Of a stretch of 64,000 nucleotides of DNA, positions 31,006 to 49,263 are shown in pieces. This stretch comes from a virus (taxonomy: Duplodnaviria; Caudoviricetes): IMG/VR virus record IMGVR_UViG_3300030376_006284, positions 8,658-72,657 of that record. One strand, written 5' to 3'. Positions within the stretch are counted from its first letter, which is position 1; each line of letters starts with the position of its first letter. The notes beneath the pieces were generated by a model, which had not been told where the DNA came from, did no database searches, and was given only the letters and a program-made list of their open reading frames with translations. The position numbers and the translations under genes are program-made.

Positions 31006-34000
31006 TTAATCAAGACTCCTAAGGAGTGATCCACCCATACTATCTTTGTAGGCATCTATAACTCTTTGTCTTCTTATGTCTAAGTTTCTGTCTGACAAGT
31101 AATCCTTTATACCTTGTCCTTCGTTTTGGAAGTCTTCAGTGGTTATGTATCCCTTGGCTACTATATCTACTAAACTTTTTCTAAGTCTAGCTCCTTTCAT
31201 TATATCTTTAACAGCTGTTTCACCTAAAGCTTTTGAGTAAACTAAGTAAGCAGCACGAGCATCTTTCAAAGCTGCTTCCATCGCTTGGTATTCCCTGCTA
31301 ATAATTTTTTGAACTTGTTTATTTTGATAACCTTTTTCTTCGTTAAGGAGTACATTCTTTCTGGAGAGTTCACCATACAACCCGCCTTGGATTTCTTTGA
31401 AGCGTCTCCTTGCTAATTGTTCTAACTGAAGTGCGTGGAATTTAACAGGAGTTATATGTCTAAAGAACTCCCCTTCAGGACTGTAGTATGGAGAGCCCAT
31501 GAATGTTCTAGCATCCTCTCCTGTTTTGTAGTCGGCATCTCCTGTTGCTTTAATTATTTTTCTAGCGGCAGTTAATGAAGGAGGCTCTAAACCTTTTTCA
31601 TAAATGTACTTTAACTTCAACTGAAGAGCATCGGGTGAATACTCAGTGTAGATTTCTCTGCCTGTGTTAGCGTCTTCATTAAATACGAACACGTCCATCA
31701 TTGCGGAGAACATAATTTGCTCGTTTAAGAATGTGTTTAATAAGTAGTCTGTAGTCAAAGCTTCTATTGCTTTTTTAGGTTCACCCCTTACTGCACTCTC
31801 AAAACCCCGCATTAGGGAATCTAAGATTGGAGACATAGGATGGACATAACTGAAACTCATGGAGTTTAGTTGCCCGTTTTGTCTGACATAAAGTAAGTTT
31901 TGGATTCTTGACCACTTAGGACTGCCTTCTCTAAATTCTCTTTCGTCCTCGTCGTTTAGGTTAGTTACAAACAACTGAACAAGTTTTGGAATTGCCATAT
32001 ACAAAACAAAGTTTGTTCCTATAAATCCGTTGGCTCTTCGTTTACCTCTTGCCTGTATGATAGGGTTCTCACTTTTCTGTTCGGCTCTTGCCTGACGTGG
32101 GATATTAGTCATCAGTCTTGGGTTTTCACCTATGAACCTAGCAAACGGAGCTGTAATAACTCTGACCACAGGGAACTCTGCAAAGAACTTTACGATAGGA
32201 GCGCTTTGACTTCTAGACTGTTGCGTTTTCAAAATGATATCACCAGCAAGGGCATCAACCTCTGCATTAGTCATGTCTTTGTACATGTCATTTCTATTGG
32301 CCTCTATTGAGTCTTGTCTAGCGGCTAAGATAGTTTGCTTTTCATATTCAAAAGCAACAATTTTCATAGCGTTATCTAATGCTAAAACCAAAGCTTGCGC
32401 TTTCTTGGAAGCGATACTTCCAGTACCCGCTATCATGCCAGCGGCCTTTAACAAAGTCTTTTCTTGTACACTTCCTTCTGGGAACAACTTGCTTTTAAAC
32501 TTTTCTGCTCTGGATGGGTCTTGTAAGTTATCAATTTCTAATTGAATATCTTCGGCATCACGTTCTCTTGATATGGAAAAGCCTTTACTTCCCCCTAACA
32601 AATCTCGCAACAACGCATAGTTAACACCTCCATCTAAAACTCCTAAAGTAGAAAGCTGTGCGTAATAACCCATGCTACCCCTATCGGCAGAATCGTTTTG
32701 AGTATAGCTTCTCTTATTAAATACTCCTGAAGGGAACACTTGCCTTTTAATTTCTGAACCAAGCTGTGGGATATAACCTGCTAACTCACTTGCAGGTAAA
32801 CCATTTTGACTTAAGAATAAGAAAGAACCTAAAACCTGTCTCTCATAGAAGGGTACTGAACCCGCTGTTTTAGATACAAGACTCAATCCAGATATCTGAG
32901 CTAATATATTCTCTGCTTGTTCAGCAAAGTTTAAATCTTTTGCTCTTTCAGGATTAAGTATAGACCTTATGTAACTAGCTACCTCAGGATGCGCTAACAA
33001 GTTACCTTTTTCCTCAACAGAACCATCTTCTGTTTTAACTCTGTAATTAATTAGAGGATCAGTGTTTGGTGGTTTTCTTGTTGGTGCTTCTTTAGCAGTG
33101 CCATCAGGATTAAACTTAACTTTAAAAGCTCCTAATTTTGTGGTTCCCTCAGAACCCGCAACTTCAGCAACATCGCTATCCGAAGATGTAGTTTTGCTGA
33201 CCTCTTCATAATCTTTATATGGATTAGGTCTGTCAAACTTCTTAGCTCTAGCGGTTTCCTCAGCTATCTTTTCTTGAGTTACTAACCACCCTGCTTTTAT
33301 TCCTTCACTAACAATACGATCTTTAAGAGCTAGTTTAGAAGCCAACCCTCCAAGATTTATTACTGTTCTGTATAAGATATCTAAGTTAGATTCTTCTTTA
33401 AACTCTCCAAGAGCAGCTCTCATTCCCTCAGGTAAATTGCCCCTCCTCTTAAAACTATCTACACCGTAGTCACCTTCGTAACTTTTTAAGAACTCTTCCA
33501 ATGCTTGTTGAGCTAAGTCATCGTTAGACTCTAGCTCTGCCTGAGCTTCGATGTTTGCCATCTCCTTTGTAAGGCCCCCTTCTTTTATAAGGTGCTCAAC
33601 TCTTTGAGCTTTCCAATGTGTTGCAAAGTAATCTAAGGCTAAGTCTCTTGCATCTTTGTGTACCTCTTTATTTAAGAACTCATTAGCCCACTCGCCTTTC
33701 TTGTAGGTAAATATTCTGTATTGTTTTGTTAAATACAATTGGAGACCAGCACCTATTCTAAGTTTAAGATCAGGGGCCGTGAATGAAATTATGTCAGCTA
33801 CCTCAGAAGATAAAGTGTCAGCTAACTTTCTTAAAGAAACTATATGGTCTGCCAATTCTGGAGAATCATTTCTTATTATTGCTATAGATTGGTTTTGCTT
33901 TCTTTTAGCTGCTTTAATAGCTTCTGTTCTCGCTTTAGATTTAGCAGTTTCTCGATTATTAAAGGCATCTAAGAATGCTTTTTCTTTTTCTTCAGCAGTT

Positions 34001-37000
34001 AACTCTTCATTCGTGTTTACACCATCCAGTTCGTTAAGATAATCTTCTTGAATCTGTGCAAGTATTTCTTCGGGAGCATTTAAATCAGTTGATCCAGTAG
34101 CATCCATGATAACCTGAGAAGGTATCTCTTTACCTGCTTGCACATAAACAGAATTAAGTAAGTCATCTGTTGTGTTTTTGTAAGCTAAAACTTTATTTCC
34201 AATAGTAGATTTAAAGAAGTTAGATCTTTCTATGTATCTTCTTAACTTTCTTTCGTTAGGCCCAAAGAAAAGACTCCAATACTTACCCCCTTTTTTCCAT
34301 TCAGGGTGTGCCTTCGATCTGTACAATAAACGCTGTAAGTATTTAACTCCCCTTGAATCCTCCATTACAGGTATATCTGCTCTCAATATGTCAGTGAGCA
34401 TATTCCATGATTCAGTAGCTTCTAAATACTCAGGAGCTTCCGTAGGATCTTTCGTGTGGATCTTAGTTCTTTGGTCGTCAGGGAAAAATTTATCTTTTAT
34501 AATTTGGTGTTCTTTAAGTAAATCTTCGTAACGCAAACCTGTACTTTCGATCTGATCTTTCCATACTCTTTCTGATCCACTTGGTGACCCCAGTAGTCCT
34601 AAAGAAGACTCAAGATCGGTGATAGTTTTGTGGTATTTGTAGAGAGGATGACGCTGACCCAAGATAGTTTCCATCCTGTGGAAGATAGCGTTTCCTATAC
34701 GACCTTCTTGTATGTCTTCGTCTGCACTGTGTGGTACTCTTAAAGATTCTACAACAAAAGGATGAGCTTCTTTAAGATCAGACATTAACATGAATCGAAC
34801 CTGATCTTTTTCAATCGAAACAAGATCATATGAAAAAGGTACGTGGTTGTCGTTTTCTGACTCTGCGTTTATTCTTTCTTCTTCTAAGTGTGCTTCTAAT
34901 CTAAGTTTGGCTTGTTCATATTGTTCTTTCTTAACTTTGTTAGAAGGTTTCTCCAGAATAGAGTAACCGTCTTCAATAGCTTCAGAAGAAATATATAAAC
35001 CTCCTACTTGTTTACCTGCAAGGGATGACCAATTATTTTCTGGCTGTGCACTGATCCGTGTACGCTGTATAGGTGGATCGTTATTTACTTCGTTTGCTTT
35101 GAAGGTTCTTCCGACAATCGCTTCAAGAACTGTAATACCTCTGTTGGTTTCTTGGACTTCGTCTGGTGAAACGCTTTTTCCAAAATTTTGTTCAACGATT
35201 TCCCCTCGGCTCCGTACTTCTCTGCCACGTACATTGTTAGGTTCAGCGAACGTGTTAACGAATTTGTTTGCTTGTAGCTCTGCGTTAAGAAATTTAGTGC
35301 TTCCTTTAACAAACTTTTTTCTGAGTGTTTTAATGCTTTCATATTTATTTATAATTAAGTCTTGTATTAACCTATTACTCTCTTCAAAGATAGGATTCAT
35401 TTGAGAGTGATAAGCCCTAACCGCTGAAAAAGGATAAGTAAATCCTGCTCCCTCGTTTCTTTGTCCTACGTGATTAACTTCATGTAAAATTATATCAGTC
35501 AAAAAGGCAGCTAGTCCTTCTACTCCGACATCTTCATTTAACTCTCCGTCTTCAGTAAAGTTCAATGAACCGTATACAGGATTAACTAAAATTACACGAG
35601 GGTTTATGCCAGTGTTTACTCCTCCCCAGTTTTTAGAAAGAGCAGATCCATAATGGTAGCTAACCCCTTTGAAGTTAGGATCATTCTCAGCATCCGCTTT
35701 TGCAAAATTTCTCAAAGCTAACCCAACATCATCATTAGAACTTAAAGAATTATCATTCTCATAAAAATCATATTTGTATACACCTAAGAATTGATCTGCA
35801 ATGTTATTAACAATACTTGCGAAATCGTTCATGAGTTCTGTTTCAGATGGATCGAGATCGAAGTCTAAATTGTTGTAAACAATGGGGACGCTTGGTCTCG
35901 CCTCATTACCATCAACGCCACTTATAATAGAAAATTCTTCCTTGAATTTTTGTTTAAAATATTCCCTTCCATATTTCCTAACAACATTGTGTACCTCTTC
36001 TTCTACAGGATGGTTATCGTCAGAAGATGTTTTCCCACTCCATTGGGGAGAAAATTTTTCTCTAGTATTACCAAAAGGATAATCCATGCTATCCGCAGGT
36101 ACCCTTGGTTTTATATTTACTTTTATATTATATGGAACACGTTGTTTTTGTACGGAAGGAGTGCCCGTTACAAATTGAAAGAGACCATTTGAATAGTATT
36201 CAATTGATTTATTGCTAATACTTTGACCGATAGGAGAATCACCTTCTGTCAGAAAAGGTATATTAGCACCTTCTTTATCAAGATCACCTATTTCGTATGC
36301 GAAAATATCAATGTCTGCTTGAAGAGTACGCACACTTGTTTTTTCATAACCATTGTTTTCTATATTATCTAAGGAAAGCGTGTTACGCATTGAGCGTTCA
36401 TTAATTAATAGAAGCTGTCTTTTTTCGTCGAGTATATTTTTATGAAATGAAGGAGCACTTAAGTAAACACTTTCTCCGTCTATTTCCTTAGGGAACTTCA
36501 TCCAAATTTGTGTGCCTGACGGAGCATCTACTTTCCGTGAAGAAATTTCAAATGGCTTTTTGCTTATTAAAGTTTTATTATCCACTTTAACAGTTGACTC
36601 AACTCCGTCCCTAACAGTCTTAACAAATATCTCTTGGGCTGCACGAAGCATTGAAATTTTAGCAAGGCCAAATCCTCCAGAAGGATTATCAGATTCTTTA
36701 TAACTTCCTCCCAAAGTAAAGTAAGCAGATTTAATTATTTCGGGGGACATACCTATTCCATTATCTCTGATGTATACCCACTGTTTATCATCAACAACTT
36801 TTCCTTTTTTAAGATCGTTTACGATAGTTTCTAAAAGTTCTGGGGGAGCAGATACCTCTTCAGTCCAGCTCGCTGGTTGAATCCTCTCCCCCCATTTCCA
36901 AGGCTTTTGATCAGGGTCTGGAACTTTTATACTGTCTCCTTGATTCCATAGCCCGTACTCAATTTGAGGTTGAGAATTAGATTCTATCCAAATTTGTGGG

Positions 37001-40000
37001 TTCTGGTTTTCTAAATCTTTGATTGCGTCATAGGAATTTTGAATACTTTCTTTATATACTATATCCTTTAATTGGCTGTCATACATTTTAGGGCCTAACA
37101 ATGCGAAGATCCTTTCTACGTCCACATCAAAAGTTGCTGACAATTCTTCAGATACATTTTCTTCGGCTTGTTTCTTTTCAGAAAACATTTGAGAAAAAGT
37201 TTTGTCTCCTCTGATTTTAGTAAACTGTTTAAGATCCTTATCAGACTCCAAGTCACCACCGAACTCACTTAAGTAAGGAACCATATAATTCCTAAGAAAA
37301 TTCTTTAAAGATTCTCCACCTAAAGATCTGGGTTTTTGCCTAGCTTTAATGGTAGTTGGTTTTAAAGAGTTGGGTTTACCTGTAATTTTTTCTACTGCTT
37401 GTACAGCTTCTTCGCCTGTCCAATTTCCTTTTACAACAAGATCAACTTTCCTTGGAGGCTCAACTGCTTTAGCTTCTTTAATAATATTTTCAGGGACATT
37501 ATCTTCTATAAGTTTTATAATATTAGAATCAGCTTTACCCTTTAAATATGGGGTAAAAAAGTTCTGCATAAAATCTTTAAAAGATTTCCCACCTATCTTA
37601 CGAATGGTCGTGTATGGTTTTCCAAGAGGGGGAGTTTTAGATGAATTAGGTTTACCTGTAATTTTTTCTATGGCCTTGATAGCATCTTCTCCTGAAAAAT
37701 TATTTCTTATATATCTTTCAAGCTGTACATGCCCTCCAAGCCTAAATGTATTTGTGTAGGAAGTCGAAGAAGCTCCTTTAATAATTTCAGGGGGGACATT
37801 ACTTTCAATTAATTTCCTAAGTTCTTGTAACTTCTTTGGAGTAAAATATTCTGCTGATGCTTCGGCTTCTTTCTGAATATCGTAAATAGTTTGCCTTTTA
37901 TTACGCAGATCTCCTGAACGTATTTTAGAGTACTGTAGTCCCTGTTCCGAATCCGCAGCCACATTTGCCCCAGCCGCAAAAGGCTTTTCAATTAACACAG
38001 CTTCTGGGTTAATTTTTACATCAAAAGTTTTTGATCCTTTAATATTTACTATAGCTTCTGGCAAAACTTCTTTAACAAAAGCATTAAGACTTTCACTGTT
38101 GAAACCTTTTTGAAAACTATTTTTAGTTACGATTTCAGCAGGGCCTACCACTTTAAGACCTTTAGTATTAAATACATCAAGTACACTACGAGCAGTTACT
38201 ACTGCCTTGCCTCCTTCTTTTAGAGATTTATAAATGTCTTGTAAAATCTCAACCCTTTCATCAGCCGTGGCAACGTTCATAACTACGTTGTTTATAATAA
38301 AATCTTGAGACTCAGCGGGCGGGTTCTTTTTAAGAGTAGGAGCAACAGATCCTTCTGCATCTTGGAAATAAGGTTCCAAAGAATTAAATGCAAAATCTGT
38401 TCCCCATTTTCCTCCCATCTTTCCTCCCTTACGTACATAACTATTTTTAGAAAGTTCTTCTAGAGCGGGAGAGCCTAAACCTTTCCCTGAGCCCCAATCC
38501 AAAATGTTAAACGTGTAGTCTTTAGATAATTTACCTCTAACTATATCCGTAACAGATTCTCTTTTGTACGTTTCCTCAGCTGTTTTCTCAATGAAATCCC
38601 ACAAGTTTCTATATGTTTCAACCGTATTAGGGCGTTGGGTGTTTTTACTATCTTCTTGTTTTAAATTATAGTTCTTATCTAAGAACTCTCTTGTAGCATG
38701 GGGTTTGTTTAACCCCAACGCTTCTATACGTAAAATGCCATACTTAGGATCAGCGTCAGCAACCCTCTGAGGATTTGGTGACTTAACTTTTTTCTGTGCC
38801 TTTAATGCCTTTGCTTCTTTTATTGCTGCTTTGGCCCCCGACGTAGTAGCCCATTGCTCTGCTGTGTATAGCTCAGGATCAACATACCTATTCATTGACG
38901 CTACTTCTAAAGCAGCTTTTACTGTTGAGCTCAGAAGAGACTCTCGAATAGGAACTCCTCTTGAAGAGACATAGTCTGGGTTTAATCTAAAATTGTTAAT
39001 AAGATCTGTTATAAGATCAACGAACTTATCCCAAAGACTTTTGCTCTCTCCTTCTGCATCAGCCTCAGGATCACGAATAGACATTAACCATTCTTGAAAC
39101 TCAATATTAGAAAAAGATTCTGTAACAAATTCGTCTATATTTCCTAACCCATAAAAATTAGATTTGGAAGTAGGATTGAAGTTACTCATAGCCGACGTAG
39201 CATAAGTAGTTCTTTTAGTTGGCGCATCAAAACCAAAGCTTCCTTTTTTTAAGAGATAAGTGTCTCCGTAATCTATTGCTGTTAAGTAAAGCTTGAGTAT
39301 ATCCCGTATAGGCTGAGGTGTGTTCTCATCTTCGGATACTTTTTTATACCCATTCTTTAATGCTTTTTTATCTAAGTTTCTTCTCGGAAGTTTACTTTCA
39401 ATAAATTTATCAAACTGCCTTTGGGTAGCTTGGTGCATAATCTCATGGATTACAGTTGATGGGGGCACACCTTTTAATATAAACTTGGCTATTGTTTTTA
39501 CTTTTGTTTTATCGGATGCAAAATTTTTGCCTTCATTAAGAAAAAATTCAGTGTTAGTAAAATCTTCAACATAATTCCACCCAATAATTTTTTGAAGTTC
39601 GGGTTTCTTTTTAAAGTTAAGATGATCCTCATCAGTACTTTCTCTATCCCCTGCATAATATTTTACAAACCTTTCAAGAATAATTTTTTGTTCGTCTGAA
39701 AGATCAGAATAATCTCCGTAATCATTTATGTCAGGTGTTTCATCGAACGCAGAGTAATTATCGTTTTCATATTCTAACCCTTTTTTTATTCCGTCCCAAT
39801 TTAGTATCGCATCTATTGGGTGTTTAAATTTTGAGTGCAGCCATTCTTTAACTGTAAGTGTTTCTAATTTTTGTGTAGCACTTTCTTTTATAGCGTTTGG
39901 GTAATCAGAAGGAACATTAAGTGTCTCTTTGTTGCCTAAGAAAACCCCACGATCAGGACTTGAGTAAGAATGATCTCTTTCAGATCTTCTAACTCGGACA

Positions 40001-43000
40001 TTTAAAAGATCGTCGGAAAAAGTTTCGAGTAAAGTCTGAGCCATTTCTTTAAATATAGTAGGCTCTCCAGTCTTAACATTTTTAGTATTAACTACGGTTT
40101 CTAAAATGTTTCTTATATTTGTATTTAATTTGTCATCTACAGAAACCATAGCTGAACCACGCTCGTCGACTCTTGATGCGTAATCGTAGGGATTCCGCAA
40201 TGTGTTTTCTACTTGAGCTAACCTATTTAAGTCGTCATCAACAGGAACTTCTTCGTATTTAAGATCATCCTGAAGTGGTGCGAGCCTCAAAGTTAAAGGC
40301 ATTACACTCCCCCCTTCATATCTAACTGGAGACAAATCTTTTATTTCTTCAGCTAGAGATTCGTTATAAGAATCCTCCCCTACATCAAAAACTATTTCTG
40401 CTTCTTCTCCATAGAATCTCCTTGCAGTTTCTAGTCCTGCTCCTGAAAGATAATAAGGTTCTGTCGTACCGCTTCTGATTGTAACTAATAGAGAGCCATC
40501 TTCTTTTATAACTTCAGTTACAAGAAGAAACTCTTGAAGCCCTAACGCTCTTGAAATATATATAGAAGGAGAAGGAGTAAATGCATATTTGTTGGCGGGT
40601 GTTAGTATAAAATCTCTGCTTAATTTGTTTTCTCCTTTAAGTAAATCATCTCCTTTTGGGTTTTTTACAACTTCAATATCTCGTTCAATACCACCCTTTC
40701 TAAAATCAGGAGCTTGAAAAGTAAATGAATTGGGTATCCTTTTCTCTGCTTGGTCGGAAGCTTCTCTCAATAAATTAAATAATTGATCTGCGTGTCTTTG
40801 TATATTTTTAGTGTTAGCTAATTTTTTGTATTTAGCGTCTAAGTTTTGCCAAGATATAGAACTGAATTGTTTTGGTTTTTCTATACCTTTTTTAACTGTC
40901 AATGGAGCAGCTTGACCCCAGTCAGGTCTCCCTACCCCTATACCTCTTTTGAGGTTAGCTGAGTCTATCGTTTCGCTTACAGACAACGCTTCTTCTTCAG
41001 GCATTCCTTTCGCTTTAGAAGTCTGAACAAACTTTATTATATCTTCTTGAGCTTCTTCAAAAGTAATGTCTCCTAGTTCATAGCTATTCCATATTTCTGC
41101 TACTACCCTTACGTGGTTTTTATTGCTCTTCCATTTAGGGGGGAACAATTGTCTGACCGCTTCCCATGTTATTGATTGAACTTCTCTAACTAAATAGTTA
41201 GCTCCTGACAAATCGTTTTGGAAAGCTACTGATCTATATGCTTCAGCAAAAGCAGGATACAATCCGCTCAACCCTAAAGTAGCATCAGATGATGTACCCT
41301 TACCACCAAAGTTCTGAGTAACCTCAGTGCTATTTCCACTGACAGGTTTTAATAAAAGAGCAGCTATGGCGTGTGTGTCCATAGTAACATGACCCGAAGT
41401 ATTTGAAGGGTCTGCGATGTTATTGTAAAAAGAACGGACTTTATGCATGAGCCCCAGTTCTTTAGATACAGACTCCATCTCTTGATCTTGAGAAGCTTCT
41501 AGTATTCTAATAGACTTCTCTATAGTAGAGTAACTACCCCACGCTATAGAACGAGGCTTACCTTTGTCTGATAAAGTAGGTCTATCTAAGATAGCTCCAT
41601 CAGGTCTAATAACATTAAAAGTCTTAGGATCTCTAAAGGATGCGTTTGCCGTAGCTTCAGAGAACATTCTTACAAATCGAGCTTGTAGTGCTTCTTTGCT
41701 GTAAGAAACTTTTTTACCTTTAAAATTAAAAGATATAGGTTGTATGTCTTTAAGTGCTTTACCTCTTAATCCAAGATTTAATATCTTAGCTTCTTTGTCT
41801 CTTTTGTCTTTAGCTTTCTGGCTGTCCCAATTATTAAATTGAAGTATGCCCTCGCTGTCTGTTGCGTGGTTTCCTTCGTCATCATATACAGGAGTTGCGT
41901 TGCCTTCATAATAAGAATTACCATTTTTATCTGTTTTTAATTCTGGCTCTCCCGCTCTTTTTAAAAAGTTATTAGCCATAGATGAATCAAAAACATATCC
42001 CTGACGAGCAGTGAATATATGCATTATCCGCTCTGCTAAAGCGACGTTCATGTACCAGTCTTTTTGTGGGCTATTAACAGCTAGAATAGCGGATGATTGC
42101 TCCAAAGAAATATTGTAAGCATCAGCAAACCTGTTGGCTATTAAGTTTGCACCATCATACCAAAGAGAAGCAAACACTCTCAAGTCTTGAGGGAACATCC
42201 TTATAAGCATGCCTAAGTTCTTAGTAGCTACATCATTTAAAGAAGAATAAATTCTGTCTGCTTGTTCTATTGGATAAGCTTTTTCAGCTTTTGCTAAAGC
42301 TTTTAGCTTAGAGGACAGTCTATCTGTTTTAGTTTTAAGGTCTGCACTAAACTTAGTAAGTTGATTTTCTTTTTTCTTAATTGCTTCTAGCTTAACAATT
42401 AAACTTTTAGCTCCTACCCTAACAGGTTTTCCGTCTTTAATATCTTGAGCCAACTCTTCAATAATGTCTACTGCCTTCGCAGACGATATTTTTATTTCAG
42501 ATCTAAGGACTTTAGGTTTGCTATACTCTTTAAGAGCACTGTTCATAACAGTCTTAGCTGCTCTAACATTGCCTTTTAGTCTGGCTCCTTTGCGTAATAA
42601 ATCTTCTATCTTAGAATTTAATTCCTCAATAAGAATAGCTGGTTTACTTTCTTCTAAAAGCACAGACTCAATCTCTGCTTTTTGTTCTTCTAAAGCTTTT
42701 GCTCTATCGCTGTTGCCTACAGCAGAAGCTTTCCTAATTTCAGCATTTATATTTTTAACTTCTTTCCTAACAGAAGCTCTTAAATTTTTCTTAGCTCGTG
42801 TAAGAGAAGTTCTTAATCTCTTAACATCTGAGTTCAGTTTATTTGAAGCTTTCTCAGAATCTTTAAAAGATTGTCTTGCTTCGTCAGCCCTTTCTTTTCT
42901 CTCAGGTTTAAGTTGATCTGATTTTTCTTTTACTTTGAAACTTATTAAATCGCTTACAAGTTTCTTTTTAGATTGTGCTATGTCTTGTATAGCTTCTTCT

Positions 43001-46000
43001 TTTTTAATCTCTGCTTTGTCTACAGGATTTTTAGCCTTCCTTACTTTTTCTAGTAAAGGATCTCCTGAAAATTCTTTTGCAACTATAGGGAAGTTCAAAA
43101 GAACAAGTGCATTCTTTTTGTACGCTTCAGGATTTAATCTTAAAGATGCTAGATCTACCTGATTGTTTGGGTCAGCTCCCTGACCTTCTGTTCCTTTTGC
43201 AGAGGGACTCCTTGTACCTACAGTCTTGCCAACAACAACGTTTCTCTTTACTTCTTCAGGATCTATTTCTGACATCCACTCCTCTCGCTCTTCTTCCTCT
43301 GGAGCGACTGTGTTTATCTCATTGCCTATTAAAGTGTTTTGTTTTCCATAAACTCCTAAGTCTATATCTAAATCATCTAATTGTGTAGGGTCAGGTTTCC
43401 TACGGAATCCTTGTCTAGCTGCTTTAAACTCACTAGCTATTTTGTTAACAGCTATTTCAAAATAAGGCCCCATCTTAGAATCTTTGTTGAGTTGATTTTT
43501 AGATCTAATCCTACCCATCAAAAAGTTCTCTATGTATTTTTTATACAAAGATAGTATTCCTTGGTTATCTTTAATCTTTAGCCAATCAAAATCAGTTTCT
43601 GTAGATCCTCGTCTACTAACCAAAGAAACATGTTTTCTTACAAGCTCTTCAAATAAATATTCTTCTAAGCTTTCTTTAATAGATCTGTTCTTATTATTTA
43701 TTTCTACACCTTCGGGTAAGTCTAAATACTCAGGCTGACCCATACGTAAATACGTTATTACTTTTTCAACGGGGTACCCTTTTATAGGCTCATTGTATTC
43801 TTTAGCCATTCTGATGAGAGCGTTAGCTCCTAACTTGTCAGCGTTGACAAGTTCTTCTATGGCGTTTTGCCTTTCTTTGTATGTTAAAGTTTCCCAAGAT
43901 ATTTGATGAATTAATTCTTCATCAATAGCTAGATTTATTATAGCTTTACCAGCAGCTGGTTTGTTCTGCGCTAGCAAATCTTTCACCATTTCAGAATTAA
44001 TGCCTATAGCTTTTCTAGCAGAGTCGTACCAAGCAACATAAGGCTCTCCATTACTTTCGTAAGCTTGAGTTCCTTCTCTTAATAATCTCCTCTTTACAGA
44101 GCGTAAGATTTTATCTGCTAAACGAGATTGTTTTTTGATAGCTTTATCTTTTATGTCGGGAGCTTCTTCAGCTTCATCAGGGTCTATGTCGGCTACGCCT
44201 TCTTTTGTAGGCTCAACAACTTCTTCTGGAGAAGATATAGAAGATAACTGAACATCTAAATCTGTTTGGTCTTGGACTTCGGGGTTAACATTTGATACGG
44301 GCAGCCCATCCAAAAGACGAATACCTAAACCTTTATCCGCTAATTGTTCTATGTGTGAAGCTATTTTTTCTTTGACAGGATCAGACAGTCTTCCTATTCT
44401 GACTCCTACAGGATCAGCTTCTTTAAGAGCTACTATATCTTCTTCTGTTAAACTTCTGCTAAAATCAACAGACTTCGGAACTGCCAATAAAACAGGGGGT
44501 TGTCCTTGTCTTATCTTAATAACAAAAGCTACGTTATTTCCATCAAATTCTCCCTCTAGTATCATCCTTGAAAATAAAGGATTCTGAAGTATAGCTTCTC
44601 TTAAAGGAGACAAATCGTCATCGGTTCTTACATCACTTAAATCTACAGCTACAGAGTTAGTTGAAGAAACTAAAGCTACTTTAGTATTGGCATCAGAATT
44701 ATAATCTGACCCTTCCTCAAGTAATAAGTTATTTACTTTTGTAGGTTCTATTAAATTAGGATTAGTGCTATTAACTATAGATACTCCTTCTACATATGTC
44801 TGCGCTTCATCTATGCTCAGTCCTTCGATGACGACAGTATCCCCTGTGTCTTGGTTAAAACCGTGAACTACTCCAGCTTTTTCAGGTTGGGGTACATTAA
44901 AGTCTAAACTTTTTACGATTGGGATATCTAGAGAAGGGGCAGAAGAAACGTTTACTACTTGAGGTATAGATGTTTGAGAGGCAACTGGTATATCTTCTAA
45001 AGACTCTACTCCTTCAACACCCTCTACGCCTTGCTCGCCTTGAGCTCCCTCTACGCTTTCGTTGTTTTCAATTATTTTACTGAACTCTTCAGGAGTAATC
45101 TTTTCTAACTCAGTAAAAAACTCTGAAGTTAACTTATCGGATATGTTGTTGATGTACTCTCTAATAACTGGTCTAAAAGTATCTTGTGCAGTTTTAACAG
45201 CAGCTCTTAAATAATCTAATATATCTAAGAGTTTTTCTTTCACTGAATTTGATAATGCTCCTCCCCGTGCTTTACCTCCCCATGCAGATTTTTCTACCTC
45301 TTTAGTACCTCCTAATAATTCAAATTGAACCAGTGAATTAATATGGGCAGTAACTAGTATTTCTTTATCTGTTACTTTACTTTCTAGCCCTTCAACAAGA
45401 TCTTCTCCTAAAACAAAAGAAGCAGCTCTGTCTCTTTCGTAAGGGCTCATCTCTTCATAGATTGCTGTTCTTTCTCTGGTTATAAAATCTTTAAGGCTAA
45501 GAGTCCCTGTAGATTCTTGATCTAAAAGTAAAAATTTATTTCTGCTAGATACTAATTCAAAAGCAGCAGCCATTGATTCGACAAAAGAACTTTTAACAAA
45601 CTTAGACCTTCTTGCTTTAGGAATAGAGGAAGATGTTTCCGCTATGTTACTTGTGTTTAAAACCAAAACAACTTTTCCTTCATTGGTAATATCAACGAAA
45701 TATTCATTACCAGTTAGGCTCTGATACTTTTCAGATTCAGGGTCTATGTCTAAACCTAACTGTATCAGTGTATCTTCTGACGGGTCAGTGACTACTGTTA
45801 CGTCATTGTTTTTTAAGCTTACCCTATTTTGATCTACAAAAGTATCTACTGCTAATTGGATTCCTTCTTGCTTGGCTAGTTGATCAGCTTGGTCTTTTAC
45901 GTTTGGAAGCAGAGGATAATCTACTATTTCTACAAGAGAAGACTCCTGCCTATCATTTACTTTTTTCTTCCTAACACTAACTCTAGCTACGCTAGCATCT

Positions 46001-49000
46001 TTAGTATAAGCTACACGAACTTCTCCAGAACCATCTTTAGGCACATACTCTACTTGATATAAGTTAGAGCCTTCTTTTGTTTCTATCTCCGACATTCCTG
46101 TAATGTCTTCTGCTAAAACCGTTACTACTTCTTCAGGATCTCTATCTGCATCAATAACAGTATTGGCAGTAGTAGTCATATTAAAAGAACCTGCTGGTGC
46201 TACAGGGTCTTTAACAAAACCAGAAAGAAGCTGTCTCCTGTTTTGTTCTAAAACTTCAGCTGTCATAGGAGCTCCATTCTCCCGCAGTGCTGCTGCTTTT
46301 TCATTAATCTCTGCGGCTTCAGCTATAACCTCATCAACAGCTTCTCTATATACTGCTTCTGTTATTGCTGACTCATCAGGGCCTAGCTTTAATTTACTTT
46401 TAACTTTGGCTGCTAAAGTAGCTATTGCGGGTATGCCTCCTCCCATGAACCCCCCTAAGACAGCAGCGTGTATTGTATTAGCCATCCTGTCTCCGAAAGA
46501 AATGTTTTCATTTAAAACTTTCTGATCAACAAAGCTTCCCAAAAACTCATCTAGTCCCTCCTCTATACTTTCAGGAAGCACGTACTTTCTAAAAGCGAAT
46601 GGTAATTTTTTTGTAACTAATCCAGTAAGTCCGTGAGCAATAGACTTGCTTAAACCTTCTCTTCCTGTCTTAGCCGCAACCTCTGCTACTATTCTATTTA
46701 ATAAAGAATTTCCTGCTTTATCTGTAGCAGAAGACATTTTGATAAGCTCTTTATAACTAGCTCTTGCGTGTCTAATGCCCTTAATATCGTGAATGGTTCT
46801 CATTCTTTTAGCACCAAAGGATTCAACACTTCCTTTTCCTGCTACAGAAAATCCAACAGTGATCCCAGCAGTAATTAAACCTCTAAAGAGAGCACCCCCT
46901 AAAGCGGCTTTTCTCTTTTCCTCATAAGTCATAGAGTCAGGCATCGCATCCATGTAAGTGTAATAAGACATGCTTGCTGATCTAACTCCTGCGGGAGCTC
47001 CTACACTAAAAGCAACTCTTCCTAAATCTGTAAGCTTGTTTGTTTTACCTCCTGATATTGCAGTTAAGTCGTCAACAAGTTTTGTTATAACGTTAGTAGA
47101 TGATCCCTTCAACGGAACTAACCCATCTTTATCAAGGATAAGACGAGTGGCTTTATCTTTTAAAAGTTTAGAATCTGTAGTTAAAAAAGCATCTCTTAAG
47201 GCTCTACTTGTAGCAGCGTTTGAAGATATCGTATACCCTTTTGAAGCAAGTTGCTTTGTTAAAAGTTTAGTGGTTCCTTTTTTAAGGCCCGCTGAAATTC
47301 CTCCAGTCAGTGCAATATCAACACCCACTTCAGGAAGTATGTTAAATGCTTCTAAAATTTTACCATCTTCCCCAAACAAAGCTGCTAGCTCTTTTCTTTT
47401 ACTAACCCGCTGTCTTGCTTTTTCATAATTGTAATAAGCTCCTTCGCTGCCCAAAAGAGCCCCTAATCCAAAAACTACGGAGAGCCCTCCATCTACAGTC
47501 CCTTTTATTGCGGCTTCCCCGTAAGCAAGTAGCTCACTATAGTTGTCTTCATCAGCTAAAAAGTCGTCGAGTATTTCATACTTCTTTTTATCTGTTGAAC
47601 TTTTTAAGTTTTCTTCAAGATACTTTGTCCAACTTTTATATATTTGCCTACCTCCCCTACCTGCTTCTGTAATTAACCTAACAGAATCGTTATAAGTATT
47701 ATTTAAATAATCTTTTCTTGATTCTTTTAAGAACTTTTTTTCCTGCTCGTTTAACTCAGGGTGCTGGGCTACAGCTTTTTCAAAAACATTTCTGTTTAGC
47801 ATTAACTGAGGGTGAGCAGATATACCAAAGTCAGCAAACTTCCTAATATTTAAATGTCTTTGCTTGTCATCTTTAAAATAATTTAAAGCTCCTGAGTTGT
47901 TTAACGCAGAACCCACTACATGAAACATACTATCTAGTATCTCCTCATCAGAAGAATCCTTTAATGAAGGCACAGCGGCCCTTAAAGAACCCGCTATTTT
48001 TTTAGGGTTCGTTAAAAACTCACGCTCTTCTTCGTTTAATCTACTAATTAATCTATCGGCATTAATAGTTAGGGGGTCTAAAGGCATCCTATTTCTAAAA
48101 ATATTTTCTCGCCCACTGCCCAAGCCAGAATAATTAATAGCCGTATCAAACCTATCACCTACAGAGCCTTTAAAGGATGCTTTAAAAGCATCAGAAAATA
48201 AACCTTTAACAGGAACAAAATAATCTGTAGCGGTAACTGCATCTACAGCAGCTTTTTCTTTTAACTCTAAATCGTTTAAACGAACTAAAATTTCTATTGC
48301 AGATAACGCTTTGCTAGCCTCAACATTTTGTTGGGCTAATTCACTCATAACCTTTCTGCGCTCCGAGTCTCCTGTGAATCTCGCTCTAAAATCATAAAGA
48401 TCGTCAGGCCCTACCCTATCAAAGCCCTCCTGTTCTTTAATATTATTAGCCGCAGTTCTCAGCTGTACTAATTTATCTTGTACTGCTGTTACGTTTTTAT
48501 TAGTTCTTTGTATCTCATCTACTGTCTTTTTGAAATCCCCATAAAACTGCAACTGCGGGGCTATGCGTAATAAATCTCCTTTTGAAACAGCTCCACTATC
48601 TAAAGCATTATTGAAAGCATTTTTAAAGTTTGGAAATTTACTTGTAAGGAATTGTGTAGAAGCAACGTTAACTTGTCTTTTACCTTCCTCATCATAGTAC
48701 GAAGAAAAAGGCAACCTATTCTCAGAAAACTCACCCGTAACTTCTCTCTTCAAAGAATCAAAGTGATCACGAGACGCAGCGTATACTTGATCTTCTTGAG
48801 ATAAATTTTCTCCTACAGGTTTTCTTTTAGAAAAAGGAGTTTGGTTTTCTTTATCTTCACCATAAAGATCAACATGGTGCGCTTTAAAAAAATCTACTTT
48901 ATCTTGATCATGGATATTAGGATTAAAAGTGTTTAACTTTTCATACAAAGCAGCTTCTTTTTCAAAAGGAACATCATCAGAAAACAGTGAGAGTTTATAA

Positions 49001-49263
49001 TCGTTGAAATTTTGTGCTCTCTCTGGGTCTATTGATTTAGCGTGTTCAAAAGAAGCACTCATTATTCCATCAAATCTATTTTGATCGAAGTCTCCTGAGT
49101 CTATTGCATCTACCGTGTAATCAAAAACATAGTCTAGATATTGATCATAAGACCCTCCTTGCCATGTTTTTAGTTTTTGTTTAGTCCCCCACTGTAAAGA
49201 CTTACCTGTAGTATCTTTATTTGAAGAAGGGAGAAAGTCAGAAAAATTAATGTTTTCAGCCAT
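31006..49263 (-). CDS. Giant polyvalent internal virion (ejection) protein, 6085 aa
   Basis: Single open frame; last of three genes of increasing size downstream of terminase. Central HExxH, SAM-binding, GHKL and glycosylase-like motifs; helical C-terminus. Confidence 0.8.
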   Translation of the reverse strand: MAENINFSDFLPSSNKDTTGKSLQWGTKQKLKTWQGGSYDQYLDYVFDYTVDAIDSGDFDQNRFDGIMSASFEHAKSIDPERAQNFNDYKLSLFSDDVPFEKEAALYEKLNTFNPNIHDQDKVDFFKAHHVDLYGEDKENQTPFSKRKPVGENLSQEDQVYAASRDHFDSLKREVTGEFSENRLPFSSYYDEEGKRQVNVASTQFLTSKFPNFKNAFNNALDSGAVSKGDLLRIAPQLQFYGDFKKTVDEIQRTNKNVTAVQDKLVQLRTAANNIKEQEGFDRVGPDDLYDFRARFTGDSERRKVMSELAQQNVEASKALSAIEILVRLNDLELKEKAAVDAVTATDYFVPVKGLFSDAFKASFKGSVGDRFDTAINYSGLGSGRENIFRNRMPLDPLTINADRLISRLNEEEREFLTNPKKIAGSLRAAVPSLKDSSDEEILDSMFHVVGSALNNSGALNYFKDDKQRHLNIRKFADFGISAHPQLMLNRNVFEKAVAQHPELNEQEKKFLKESRKDYLNNTYNDSVRLITEAGRGGRQIYKSWTKYLEENLKSSTDKKKYEILDDFLADEDNYSELLAYGEAAIKGTVDGGLSVVFGLGALLGSEGAYYNYEKARQRVSKRKELAALFGEDGKILEAFNILPEVGVDIALTGGISAGLKKGTTKLLTKQLASKGYTISSNAATSRALRDAFLTTDSKLLKDKATRLILDKDGLVPLKGSSTNVITKLVDDLTAISGGKTNKLTDLGRVAFSVGAPAGVRSASMSYYTYMDAMPDSMTYEEKRKAALGGALFRGLITAGITVGFSVAGKGSVESFGAKRMRTIHDIKGIRHARASYKELIKMSSATDKAGNSLLNRIVAEVAAKTGREGLSKSIAHGLTGLVTKKLPFAFRKYVLPESIEEGLDEFLGSFVDQKVLNENISFGDRMANTIHAAVLGGFMGGGIPAIATLAAKVKSKLKLGPDESAITEAVYREAVDEVIAEAAEINEKAAALRENGAPMTAEVLEQNRRQLLSGFVKDPVAPAGSFNMTTTANTVIDADRDPEEVVTVLAEDITGMSEIETKEGSNLYQVEYVPKDGSGEVRVAYTKDASVARVSVRKKKVNDRQESSLVEIVDYPLLPNVKDQADQLAKQEGIQLAVDTFVDQNRVSLKNNDVTVVTDPSEDTLIQLGLDIDPESEKYQSLTGNEYFVDITNEGKVVLVLNTSNIAETSSSIPKARRSKFVKSSFVESMAAAFELVSSRNKFLLLDQESTGTLSLKDFITRERTAIYEEMSPYERDRAASFVLGEDLVEGLESKVTDKEILVTAHINSLVQFELLGGTKEVEKSAWGGKARGGALSNSVKEKLLDILDYLRAAVKTAQDTFRPVIREYINNISDKLTSEFFTELEKITPEEFSKIIENNESVEGAQGEQGVEGVEGVESLEDIPVASQTSIPQVVNVSSAPSLDIPIVKSLDFNVPQPEKAGVVHGFNQDTGDTVVIEGLSIDEAQTYVEGVSIVNSTNPNLIEPTKVNNLLLEEGSDYNSDANTKVALVSSTNSVAVDLSDVRTDDDLSPLREAILQNPLFSRMILEGEFDGNNVAFVIKIRQGQPPVLLAVPKSVDFSRSLTEEDIVALKEADPVGVRIGRLSDPVKEKIASHIEQLADKGLGIRLLDGLPVSNVNPEVQDQTDLDVQLSSISSPEEVVEPTKEGVADIDPDEAEEAPDIKDKAIKKQSRLADKILRSVKRRLLREGTQAYESNGEPYVAWYDSARKAIGINSEMVKDLLAQNKPAAGKAIINLAIDEELIHQISWETLTYKERQNAIEELVNADKLGANALIRMAKEYNEPIKGYPVEKVITYLRMGQPEYLDLPEGVEINNKNRSIKESLEEYLFEELVRKHVSLVSRRGSTETDFDWLKIKDNQGILSLYKKYIENFLMGRIRSKNQLNKDSKMGPYFEIAVNKIASEFKAARQGFRRKPDPTQLDDLDIDLGVYGKQNTLIGNEINTVAPEEEEREEWMSEIDPEEVKRNVVVGKTVGTRSPSAKGTEGQGADPNNQVDLASLRLNPEAYKKNALVLLNFPIVAKEFSGDPLLEKVRKAKNPVDKAEIKKEEAIQDIAQSKKKLVSDLISFKVKEKSDQLKPERKERADEARQSFKDSEKASNKLNSDVKRLRTSLTRAKKNLRASVRKEVKNINAEIRKASAVGNSDRAKALEEQKAEIESVLLEESKPAILIEELNSKIEDLLRKGARLKGNVRAAKTVMNSALKEYSKPKVLRSEIKISSAKAVDIIEELAQDIKDGKPVRVGAKSLIVKLEAIKKKENQLTKFSADLKTKTDRLSSKLKALAKAEKAYPIEQADRIYSSLNDVATKNLGMLIRMFPQDLRVFASLWYDGANLIANRFADAYNISLEQSSAILAVNSPQKDWYMNVALAERIMHIFTARQGYVFDSSMANNFLKRAGEPELKTDKNGNSYYEGNATPVYDDEGNHATDSEGILQFNNWDSQKAKDKRDKEAKILNLGLRGKALKDIQPISFNFKGKKVSYSKEALQARFVRMFSEATANASFRDPKTFNVIRPDGAILDRPTLSDKGKPRSIAWGSYSTIEKSIRILEASQDQEMESVSKELGLMHKVRSFYNNIADPSNTSGHVTMDTHAIAALLLKPVSGNSTEVTQNFGGKGTSSDATLGLSGLYPAFAEAYRSVAFQNDLSGANYLVREVQSITWEAVRQLFPPKWKSNKNHVRVVAEIWNSYELGDITFEEAQEDIIKFVQTSKAKGMPEEEALSVSETIDSANLKRGIGVGRPDWGQAAPLTVKKGIEKPKQFSSISWQNLDAKYKKLANTKNIQRHADQLFNLLREASDQAEKRIPNSFTFQAPDFRKGGIERDIEVVKNPKGDDLLKGENKLSRDFILTPANKYAFTPSPSIYISRALGLQEFLLVTEVIKEDGSLLVTIRSGTTEPYYLSGAGLETARRFYGEEAEIVFDVGEDSYNESLAEEIKDLSPVRYEGGSVMPLTLRLAPLQDDLKYEEVPVDDDLNRLAQVENTLRNPYDYASRVDERGSAMVSVDDKLNTNIRNILETVVNTKNVKTGEPTIFKEMAQTLLETFSDDLLNVRVRRSERDHSYSSPDRGVFLGNKETLNVPSDYPNAIKESATQKLETLTVKEWLHSKFKHPIDAILNWDGIKKGLEYENDNYSAFDETPDINDYGDYSDLSDEQKIILERFVKYYAGDRESTDEDHLNFKKKPELQKIIGWNYVEDFTNTEFFLNEGKNFASDKTKVKTIAKFILKGVPPSTVIHEIMHQATQRQFDKFIESKLPRRNLDKKALKNGYKKVSEDENTPQPIRDILKLYLTAIDYGDTYLLKKGSFGFDAPTKRTTYATSAMSNFNPTSKSNFYGLGNIDEFVTESFSNIEFQEWLMSIRDPEADAEGESKSLWDKFVDLITDLINNFRLNPDYVSSRGVPIRESLLSSTVKAALEVASMNRYVDPELYTAEQWATTSGAKAAIKEAKALKAQKKVKSPNPQRVADADPKYGILRIEALGLNKPHATREFLDKNYNLKQEDSKNTQRPNTVETYRNLWDFIEKTAEETYKRESVTDIVRGKLSKDYTFNILDWGSGKGLGSPALEELSKNSYVRKGGKMGGKWGTDFAFNSLEPYFQDAEGSVAPTLKKNPPAESQDFIINNVVMNVATADERVEILQDIYKSLKEGGKAVVTARSVLDVFNTKGLKVVGPAEIVTKNSFQKGFNSESLNAFVKEVLPEAIVNIKGSKTFDVKINPEAVLIEKPFAAGANVAADSEQGLQYSKIRSGDLRNKRQTIYDIQKEAEASAEYFTPKKLQELRKLIESNVPPEIIKGASSTSYTNTFRLGGHVQLERYIRNNFSGEDAIKAIEKITGKPNSSKTPPLGKPYTTIRKIGGKSFKDFMQNFFTPYLKGKADSNIIKLIEDNVPENIIKEAKAVEPPRKVDLVVKGNWTGEEAVQAVEKITGKPNSLKPTTIKARQKPRSLGGESLKNFLRNYMVPYLSEFGGDLESDKDLKQFTKIRGDKTFSQMFSEKKQAEENVSEELSATFDVDVERIFALLGPKMYDSQLKDIVYKESIQNSYDAIKDLENQNPQIWIESNSQPQIEYGLWNQGDSIKVPDPDQKPWKWGERIQPASWTEEVSAPPELLETIVNDLKKGKVVDDKQWVYIRDNGIGMSPEIIKSAYFTLGGSYKESDNPSGGFGLAKISMLRAAQEIFVKTVRDGVESTVKVDNKTLISKKPFEISSRKVDAPSGTQIWMKFPKEIDGESVYLSAPSFHKNILDEKRQLLLINERSMRNTLSLDNIENNGYEKTSVRTLQADIDIFAYEIGDLDKEGANIPFLTEGDSPIGQSISNKSIEYYSNGLFQFVTGTPSVQKQRVPYNIKVNIKPRVPADSMDYPFGNTREKFSPQWSGKTSSDDNHPVEEEVHNVVRKYGREYFKQKFKEEFSIISGVDGNEARPSVPIVYNNLDFDLDPSETELMNDFASIVNNIADQFLGVYKYDFYENDNSLSSNDDVGLALRNFAKADAENDPNFKGVSYHYGSALSKNWGGVNTGINPRVILVNPVYGSLNFTEDGELNEDVGVEGLAAFLTDIILHEVNHVGQRNEGAGFTYPFSAVRAYHSQMNPIFEESNRLIQDLIINKYESIKTLRKKFVKGSTKFLNAELQANKFVNTFAEPNNVRGREVRSRGEIVEQNFGKSVSPDEVQETNRGITVLEAIVGRTFKANEVNNDPPIQRTRISAQPENNWSSLAGKQVGGLYISSEAIEDGYSILEKPSNKVKKEQYEQAKLRLEAHLEEERINAESENDNHVPFSYDLVSIEKDQVRFMLMSDLKEAHPFVVESLRVPHSADEDIQEGRIGNAIFHRMETILGQRHPLYKYHKTITDLESSLGLLGSPSGSERVWKDQIESTGLRYEDLLKEHQIIKDKFFPDDQRTKIHTKDPTEAPEYLEATESWNMLTDILRADIPVMEDSRGVKYLQRLLYRSKAHPEWKKGGKYWSLFFGPNERKLRRYIERSNFFKSTIGNKVLAYKNTTDDLLNSVYVQAGKEIPSQVIMDATGSTDLNAPEEILAQIQEDYLNELDGVNTNEELTAEEKEKAFLDAFNNRETAKSKARTEAIKAAKRKQNQSIAIIRNDSPELADHIVSLRKLADTLSSEVADIISFTAPDLKLRIGAGLQLYLTKQYRIFTYKKGEWANEFLNKEVHKDARDLALDYFATHWKAQRVEHLIKEGGLTKEMANIEAQAELESNDDLAQQALEEFLKSYEGDYGVDSFKRRGNLPEGMRAALGEFKEESNLDILYRTVINLGGLASKLALKDRIVSEGIKAGWLVTQEKIAEETARAKKFDRPNPYKDYEEVSKTTSSDSDVAEVAGSEGTTKLGAFKVKFNPDGTAKEAPTRKPPNTDPLINYRVKTEDGSVEEKGNLLAHPEVASYIRSILNPERAKDLNFAEQAENILAQISGLSLVSKTAGSVPFYERQVLGSFLFLSQNGLPASELAGYIPQLGSEIKRQVFPSGVFNKRSYTQNDSADRGSMGYYAQLSTLGVLDGGVNYALLRDLLGGSKGFSISRERDAEDIQLEIDNLQDPSRAEKFKSKLFPEGSVQEKTLLKAAGMIAGTGSIASKKAQALVLALDNAMKIVAFEYEKQTILAARQDSIEANRNDMYKDMTNAEVDALAGDIILKTQQSRSQSAPIVKFFAEFPVVRVITAPFARFIGENPRLMTNIPRQARAEQKSENPIIQARGKRRANGFIGTNFVLYMAIPKLVQLFVTNLNDEDEREFREGSPKWSRIQNLLYVRQNGQLNSMSFSYVHPMSPILDSLMRGFESAVRGEPKKAIEALTTDYLLNTFLNEQIMFSAMMDVFVFNEDANTGREIYTEYSPDALQLKLKYIYEKGLEPPSLTAARKIIKATGDADYKTGEDARTFMGSPYYSPEGEFFRHITPVKFHALQLEQLARRRFKEIQGGLYGELSRKNVLLNEEKGYQNKQVQKIISREYQAMEAALKDARAAYLVYSKALGETAVKDIMKGARLRKSLVDIVAKGYITTEDFQNEGQGIKDYLSDRNLDIRRQRVIDAYKDSMGGSLLRSLD

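Follow-up and report, generated by a model that had tools for sequence, protein, structure and literature searches.

The locus described here raises the question of what a domain resembling part of a bacterial DNA phosphorothioation (PT)-associated methyltransferase could be doing inside a giant phage protein. The window, meaning the whole 64,000-nucleotide stretch that was analyzed (positions 8,658 to 72,657 of the Caudoviricetes record IMGVR_UViG_3300030376_006284), contains a giant multi-domain open reading frame (ORF), P0001, and within it a segment that the original prediction, made from the sequence alone, had likened to the non-catalytic domain of the methyltransferase family TIGR04096 and proposed as a decoy or sensor aimed at PT-linked defense. 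The segment, referred to below as the module, forms a conserved domain of its own, maintained by purifying selection, and its strongest contextual signal is a methyltransferase partnership rather than the behavior of a free-standing decoy. The reading that we favor, with a probability of roughly one half, is that the module is an accessory domain, for recognition or for a coupled second step, of a phage methyltransferase unit that modifies a target in the infected cell.

All of the peptides on which the original prediction was built (GKQVGGLYIS, HPFVVESLRV, IFHRMETILGQRHPLYKYHKTITDLESSLGLL and GSERVW) were recovered in the minus-strand translation, within the P0001 reading frame, and the frame translated on the plus strand of 34480-35045 is closed by stops. 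The in-frame segment covers window positions 34480-35046 on the minus strand, one base beyond that range, and encodes 189 amino acids (aa), residues 4740-4928. The giant ORF, the module and its two edges are placed as follows:

31006..49263, minus strand: giant multi-domain ORF P0001, 6085 aa, 25% of the 72,657-bp genome
34474..35052, minus strand: module, residues 4738-4930 of P0001
35053..35067, minus strand: upstream junction QRTRI, residues 4733-4737
34459..34473, minus strand: downstream junction QRTKI, residues 4931-4935

Two independent tests support the description of the module as cleanly bounded. Standalone proteins of 156-193 aa cover the segment from the N-terminal GK motif through the last helix in alignment A1, which holds 19 phage-type sequences and in which segment numbering plus 4739 gives P0001 numbering. 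In addition, the flanking pattern QRT[RK]I is found exactly twice in all 6085 aa of P0001, once directly on each side of the module (residues 4733 and 4931). A pair of junction motifs therefore does stand at the two edges as had been claimed, although it is not certain that these are the motifs originally meant. Comparison of the window with near-identical phage copies yielded 9 synonymous and 3 non-synonymous differences for one copy and 4 and 2, respectively, for a second.

A phmmer search with residues 4720-4950 against 1.84 billion representative proteins returned 33 matches at E ≤ 1e-3, 18 of them at E ≤ 1e-10. These relatives include two giant proteins, P0003 (6024 aa, 66% identity at the module) and P0004 (5123 aa, 53%), which are full-length relatives of P0001, along with the 18 standalone proteins of the size given above, reaching E 9e-20, and several longer proteins. 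Residues H95, P96, H123 and E146 (protein positions 4834, 4835, 4862 and 4885) are invariant in A1 and all present in the window copy, and G11, K12, Y18, A23, R84, R124, G150 and W162 are nearly invariant. Judged by this end-to-end alignment with standalone members and by the invariant residues, the module is a member of an unnamed domain family with the motifs GK..G..Y, HP....S, YHR, E..GLL and W.

Direct profile searches did not connect this family to TIGR04096. With hmmscan, the 189-aa segment gave no match in NCBIfam (which contains TIGR04096), Pfam, PHROGs or PADLOC, and neither the segment nor the whole of P0001 in three pieces matched TIGR04096 at E ≤ 1; the lack of a significant profile hit is what the original prediction had named as its own refutation, and the simplest test gave exactly this result. 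Intermediate sequences do make the connection. Two of the ten relatives scanned, P0033 and P0035, which are among the weakest phmmer matches of the segment, match TIGR04096 over positions 316-476/478 with E 1.2e-21 and 5.7e-33, and two of the ten longer proteins found with the A1 profile carry the source name [quoted passage not shown]. To avoid circularity, P0033 was dropped before the profile was rebuilt, and 13 of 13 targets, all TIGR04096-like or related, were still matched along the whole length of the domain, with weak matches for two. Alignment by hhalign of 18 phage-type sequences (A4, a profile that excludes the bridging sequences) with five TIGR04096-like proteins (A3) reached a probability of 98.5% with E 3.2e-15 over 140 columns. 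The match falls on A3 columns 322-467, where every motif lines up, at 19% identity. In the reciprocal direction, a hidden Markov model (HMM) of the C-terminal domain of 49 TIGR04096-like sequences (A7) was run unfiltered on the full set of 276 six-frame ORFs from the window and matched only the giant ORF, at the segment (E 8.2e-5, 16.3 bits), with the next best ORF at E 1.1. Among those 49 sequences the counterparts of P96, R124 and G11 (P391, R422 and G327) are invariant, and those of H95, E146, G150 and W162 are conserved in at least 90%; the H123 counterpart falls below 90%.

These comparisons support distant homology of the module to the C-terminal, non-Rossmann domain of TIGR04096. What had been predicted as a resemblance to the non-methyltransferase part of that family thus holds as remote homology, through hhalign, the bridging proteins and the reciprocal HMM, and does not extend to family membership, the curated cut-off for which is 150 bits; a true member, the ORF at locus L068, scores 714 bits, and P0001 does not reach the cut-off. 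If the resemblance were instead a matter of chance or composition, the segment being a linker or structural part unrelated to TIGR04096, a silent direct hmmscan and a reciprocal score of just 16.3 bits would be expected. Such an explanation is contradicted by the 33 database relatives with the same boundaries, by the confident predicted model described below, by the mostly synonymous differences and by the hhalign result across 140 columns with motifs in register, and we consider it very improbable.

The main reading rests on the company that this domain keeps. A class-I S-adenosylmethionine (SAM) methyltransferase is encoded in the same polypeptide in 10 of the 33 relatives, recognized by Pfam Methyltransf_23 in P0007, P0019, P0029, P0034 and P0035 and by a profile built from the Pfam-positive fusions in P0003, P0004, P0016, P0028 and P0031; 18 others lack the length to accommodate one. 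The order is not fixed: the module precedes the methyltransferase in the small phage-type fusions and in P0031, where the module (2142-2259) is followed directly by the methyltransferase (2307-2405), and follows it in TIGR04096 and in P0004. Two bacterial proteins, P0036 (702 aa) and P0037 (676 aa), have the domain in two copies, one on each side of the methyltransferase. Standalone copies with genomic context were found in metagenome contigs:

L085, 159-773 and 2062-2592: standalone-copy locus in an AT-rich contig
L086, 1050-1505: standalone-copy locus in an AT-rich contig

At L085 the standalone copy lies 1.3 kb downstream, on the same strand, of a 204-aa methyltransferase ORF with an “NVLNVI” motif. 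Judged from translations, with no family scan, the neighbors at these two loci look phage-like: this methyltransferase, an SbcD-like phosphoesterase and a dCMP-deaminase-like ORF. Across bacteria and phages, the domain appears to be paired repeatedly with a single kind of class-I SAM methyltransferase, and the arrangements seen in these sequences are fusion after the methyltransferase, fusion before it, encoding nearby, or embedding of both together in polyvalent proteins. The search for related loci with alignment A2 found only two viral and five metagenome loci; P0034 and P0035 as locus-search queries had no match in viral contigs, and megablast and tblastn searches with the region and with P0019 and P0006 had no match among 50,697 GenBank phage records.

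P0001 itself also carries a methyltransferase, upstream of the module and separated from it by a cassette:

38029..38541, minus strand: class-I SAM methyltransferase module, the presumed partner, about residues 3575-3745
37921..37935, minus strand: junction QYSKI, just past the methyltransferase at the start of the cassette, residues 3777-3781
35185..37917, minus strand: cassette between methyltransferase and module, ~910 aa, residues 3783-4693
37276-37845, minus strand: tandem repeat of ~95 residues within the cassette, residues 3806-3996, copies 39% identical (E 1e-19)
36556-36783, minus strand: GHKL-type ATPase domain within the cassette, residues 4161-4236 (Pfam HATPase_c_3, E 2.4e-5)

This methyltransferase has motif I as ILDWGSGKG, followed by “VVMNV..ADER” and “SFQKGF”; it matches ArsM in part (E 4.9e-4) and is also alignable with TIGR04096 methyltransferases. 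The cassette is present in P0001 and P0003. By BLASTP of P0001 against P0004, the latter is without P0001 residues ~3783-4693, and its methyltransferase (3557-3664) runs directly into its module (3736-3971). As the two are contiguous in P0004 without the cassette, the pair looks ancestral in the giant-protein lineage, and in P0001 the cassette thus looks inserted between them. It contains the tandem repeat, which includes EKITGKPNS and has no family match, and the GHKL domain, for which RIIA PHROGs and the restriction-enzyme family BbrUII/HgiDII also gave weak matches. Further along the cassette, after the GHKL domain, stands an HEVNH motif at residue 4594, as a motif only and without a profile match.

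In the mechanism that we propose, the methyltransferase and the module would cooperate physically as one unit, in which the module would recognize the substrate for the upstream methyltransferase or carry out a coupled second step. The giant protein would be delivered with the virion or act early, in the manner of a polyvalent protein, and the unit would modify a target in the infected cell, for which a connection to PT-DNA is plausible by analogy with the bacterial branch. A complex prediction with the window methyltransferase (A6) and the module (A1) scored 0.00 without controls, a value that counts neither way on binding.

The predicted structure of the module bears on a further possibility, that it is itself an enzyme. 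An AlphaFold2 model made from the A1 alignment had a mean predicted local distance difference test score (pLDDT) of 93.8 and a predicted template modeling score (pTM) of 0.88, with a fold order of a beta-hairpin bearing GK..Y, a long helix, a three-stranded sheet and a four-helix C-terminal part. Foldseek of this model against the Protein Data Bank (PDB) gave a best E of 0.55 and nothing at E ≤ 0.001, and VIA-align against 48,161 chains gave a best Z of 4.5, nothing at Z ≥ 5, and only weak, partial overlaps of cystatin or NTF2-like type. The A1 profile had 0 matches at E ≤ 10 among PDB sequences, no usable match for the module was found in the ESM Atlas, and no Pfam family covered the domain in any relative scanned; BFVD contained one unnamed 1232-aa viral chunk at E 8.8e-4. 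On the strength of the model, the fold is apparently new.

A confident fold without a solved relative could hide an unrecognized active site, and the module might be catalytic on its own account, for example as a metal-dependent hydrolase or transferase using His-His-Glu, sharing a substrate with the methyltransferase and acting ahead of it or after it, or serving as an independent effector within a polyvalent protein. The four invariant residues of A1, with K12, R84 and R124 nearly so, would suit this role, as would the HP, HR and E..GLL motifs, which align with the TIGR04096 branch despite the low identity, and the standalone state of 18 of the 33 relatives means that the module can work as its own polypeptide. 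However, the histidine of the HRKE motif is the one that is less than 90% conserved in the TIGR04096-like sequences, the module resembles no enzyme family, and the repeated fusion to one methyltransferase type suggests dependence, not autonomy. We regard an autonomous enzyme as doubtful.

For the bacterial branch, the link to PT that the original prediction gave for the family is well borne out by gene neighborhoods. A scan of 185,579 species genomes gave at least 600 pattern matches, at least 553 of them encoding relatives. The 80 loci retained are the best-scoring ones, not a random sample, and come mostly from Planctomycetota and Cyanobacteriota. Flanking ORFs were clustered, each cluster was named from one representative, and genes within 10 kb were counted. 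Among the best 80 loci, the commonest neighbors were DndC (43), DndE (36), DndD (32) and a DGQHR/DndB-like protein (23), followed by SspC (17), PbeA (13) and SspB (12), and DndE usually ends less than 200 bp upstream of the TIGR04096 gene on the same strand. At least one dnd, ssp or pbe neighbor was present at 61 of the 79 loci with a methyltransferase ORF (53 dnd-type, 17 ssp-type, 12 PbeA), and where more than 8 kb was available on both sides, 38 of 44 loci had at least one such gene (35 dnd-type, 10 ssp-type, 7 PbeA). The “DndC” cluster member in ssp-type loci is probably a DndC-like SspD. The TIGR04096 genes (loci L003-L082) follow dndBCDE and also lie divergently beside sspB-sspC-(dndC-like) clusters and near PbeA; the curated name of the family cites dnd only. 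As two distinct PT-writing systems adjoin the family, a link to PT-DNA itself is suggested rather than to the proteins of one system.

This neighborhood, shared by dndBCDE-type sets, sspBC-type sets and PbeA, and the solid homology of the phage module to the bacterial branch are what would favor a reader or decoy, in which the module recognizes PT-DNA or a component shared by Dnd and Ssp, alone or together with the methyltransferase, and blinds or misdirects SspE, PbeABCD or DndFGH. DNA-mimic decoys are acidic, and the window copy is unusually so, with an isoelectric point (pI) of 5.2 and a net charge of -10.5. Acidity is, however, no family trait, as the family pI ranges from 5.2 to 9.8 and other members are basic. 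SspE is described as PT-stimulated in PMC8092258, which would fit a target of this kind. On the other side stand the missing dndC in the phage, the lack of any PT gene seen beside phage-type copies, and the 19% identity to the bacterial branch, at which ligand specificity may differ; there is also no sequence or fold similarity to solved structures, sulfur-binding domains included, an absence that does not exclude the idea. A PT-related target for the phage module is plausible by analogy, and a reader or decoy as such seems to us unlikely. Less probable still is an extension in which the module would be an own-fold reader of PT-DNA or of some factor that the Dnd and Ssp systems share and would form, with the methyltransferase, a phage-delivered effector that alters or masks PT marks, for example by S-methylation. 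Such an effector would disarm SspE, PbeABCD or DndFGH, and the bacterial pair would then tune or erase PT marks, a proposal that we rate as distinctly improbable. The searchable literature says essentially nothing on TIGR04096 function and names the family only in passing, and the passages available from the 2024 reappraisal of Dnd (PMC10853773) contain neither the module domain nor its methyltransferase, which the supplements of that paper may list.

A full-length TIGR04096 model of 492 residues (pLDDT 87.7, pTM 0.84) has a pTM that is consistent with fixed packing between the predicted domains. Its structural neighbors, which match the methyltransferase part only (TMq ≤ 0.24), are small-molecule, tRNA (Trm9, METTL6) and cap methyltransferases. 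A role for this methyltransferase as a DNA base methylase was considered and is not favored, with none of the listed neighbors described as a DNA methyltransferase.

Returning to the accessory-domain reading, a number of observations weigh against it. Besides the negative hmmscan of the segment, the TIGR04096 model matched nothing in the complete phage genome at E ≤ 10, no DndC match was found there at E ≤ 1, and no dnd or other PT genes were seen beside the phage-type copies with visible context, L085 and L086 included. The standalone copy at L086 (6.1 kb) has no methyltransferase nearby, and in P0001 the methyltransferase lies ~1000 residues upstream of the module and is not adjacent to it. 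The hhalign value of 97.1% between the methyltransferases of P0001, P0003 and P0004 and the TIGR04096 methyltransferase region stands without a control against unrelated class-I methyltransferases, and the similarity of the P0001 methyltransferase to that of TIGR04096 is weak, at 10.7 bits. The TIGR04096 methyltransferase is, moreover, unlike DNA amino-methyltransferases, and the two conserved histidines and one glutamate of the module are at least as compatible with catalysis or metal binding as with a recognition surface. Finally, given the spread of pI and the acidic window copy, general DNA binding is not suggested. The idea of a generally basic, hence DNA-binding, module was ruled out, its charge not being consistently basic across the family.

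The junction motifs at the module edges belong to a wider pattern. At the position of junction 4733, P0003 has QDTQI and P0004 has QGSSI, and at that of junction 4931 they have QDTII and QETAI. The pattern Q-x-[ST]-x-I, which was defined after seeing the data, occurs at 8 sites in P0001 compared to 1.65 +/- 1.23 in 300 shuffles (maximum 5). The sites are residues 1672, 1975, 2389, 2799, 3777, 4013, 4733 and 4931, with site 3777 directly after the methyltransferase and site 4013 after the repeats. It is kept at the equivalent place for five of the eight in P0003 (1975, 3777, 4013, 4733, 4931) and for three in P0004 (1975, 4733, 4931). The cassette that P0004 does not have spans from about junction 3777 to about junction 4733, and P0004 has one junction in that place. 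As the sites are conserved and frame the cassette, the motifs mark module boundaries, and they may be recombination joints or processing (protease) sites. Alignment of the three proteins shows gain or loss of modules between junction motifs within this giant-protein lineage.

The phage record is 72,657 bp long and is rated by IMG/VR as 100% complete. A large-terminase gene lies two ORFs upstream of P0001 on the same strand, and helicase, DNA polymerase and primase genes are among the neighbors on the opposite strand. Among the 10 ORFs scanned, the remaining neighbors had no PHROGs or Pfam match, and a portal or capsid gene beside the giant gene was not confirmed. Within the first 3500 residues of P0001 there is only one other curated-family match:

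41992-42165, minus strand: DUF7178 / phrog_3842, residues 2367-2424 (E 5e-18 / 9e-19)

P0001 also has a single strongly hydrophobic stretch at residues 933-952 and an HExxH motif, HEIMH, at residue 3273, the latter as a motif only, without a profile match. Two further very large ORFs are on the minus strand, at 2-6541 (2180 aa or more, as it extends past the edge of the window) and 6543-12164 (1873 aa), neither of which has a Pfam match above noise at E ≤ 0.01; with the 6085-aa gene included, the three occupy nearly half of the window. No tRNA or tmRNA genes were found in window positions 1-64000, and the G+C content of the window is 38.4%.

TIGR04096 proteins are common, with at least 553 candidate loci in the species genomes scanned, beside Dnd and Ssp clusters, and the presence of the same pair of methyltransferase and domain in phages would make it a portable functional unit that occurs as separate genes, as permuted fusions and in giant multi-effector proteins. 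The phage copies represent a new, architecturally different branch of an uncharacterized PT-linked domain family. Small and tractable members, such as standalone proteins of ~170 aa and 370-aa fusions, could reveal the role of the bacterial PT-linked enzyme. Should PT-DNA prove to be the target of the phage unit, this would be a counter-defense of a new kind against backbone-modification immunity; if the unit is not directed at PT, its accessory domain and the fold of that domain would still be new for a methyltransferase. In either case, the Q-x-[ST]-x-I junctions and the gain and loss of the cassette offer a handle on the assembly, and perhaps the processing, of giant polyvalent proteins.

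Among known systems, the closest is the TIGR04096 (dnd_rel_methyl) C-terminal domain itself (model positions ~316-478), which has the GK..G..Y, HP, HR, E..GLL and W motifs in common with the phage module and is likewise associated with a class-I methyltransferase bearing “NV.NV...ER” and “FQK” motifs. The two differ in architecture, as a TIGR04096 protein is ~480 aa long, with an N-terminal class-I methyltransferase, a helical linker and the C-terminal domain, whereas the phage module sits in a 6085-aa protein, ~1000 residues past the methyltransferase and without the ~140-residue helical linker. They differ further in that the phage module has no direct HMM match and, based on the DndC search, no dnd/ssp neighborhood. 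ScoMcrA-type PT-dependent nucleases carry a sulfur-binding domain (SBD), which would be a functional analog if the module reads PT-DNA, both being accessory domains of ~160-190 aa linked to PT biology; no sequence or fold match between the SBD and the module was found in the PDB searches, a result that gives no evidence of a relationship without excluding one.

The giant protein as a whole is best compared to the polyvalent proteins described in PMC5512222. The hallmark Pfam domains of that class (MuF, LPDs, ART-PolyVal and zincin MPTase) were not found in P0001 at E ≤ 1, and the module domain goes unmentioned in the polyvalent-protein passages of that paper, the supplements of which may list it. 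One example described there by Iyer et al. (2017) is a DarB-type unit of LPD36, N6A-methylase and helicase, which shares with P0001 the theme of a methyltransferase with a dedicated accessory domain; unlike in that unit, the P0001 methyltransferase is not a [SDN]PP[FYW] DNA adenine methylase and the accessory domain is not LPD36. Like the polyvalent proteins of those passages, P0001 strings unrelated modules together in one polypeptide (the methyltransferase, the GHKL ATPase domain HATPase_c_3, DUF7178, HExxH motifs and the module itself), with cassette gain and loss among them, and P0031, a relative with the same module, does carry the polyvalent markers LPD38 and ART-PolyVal, as identified by Pfam.

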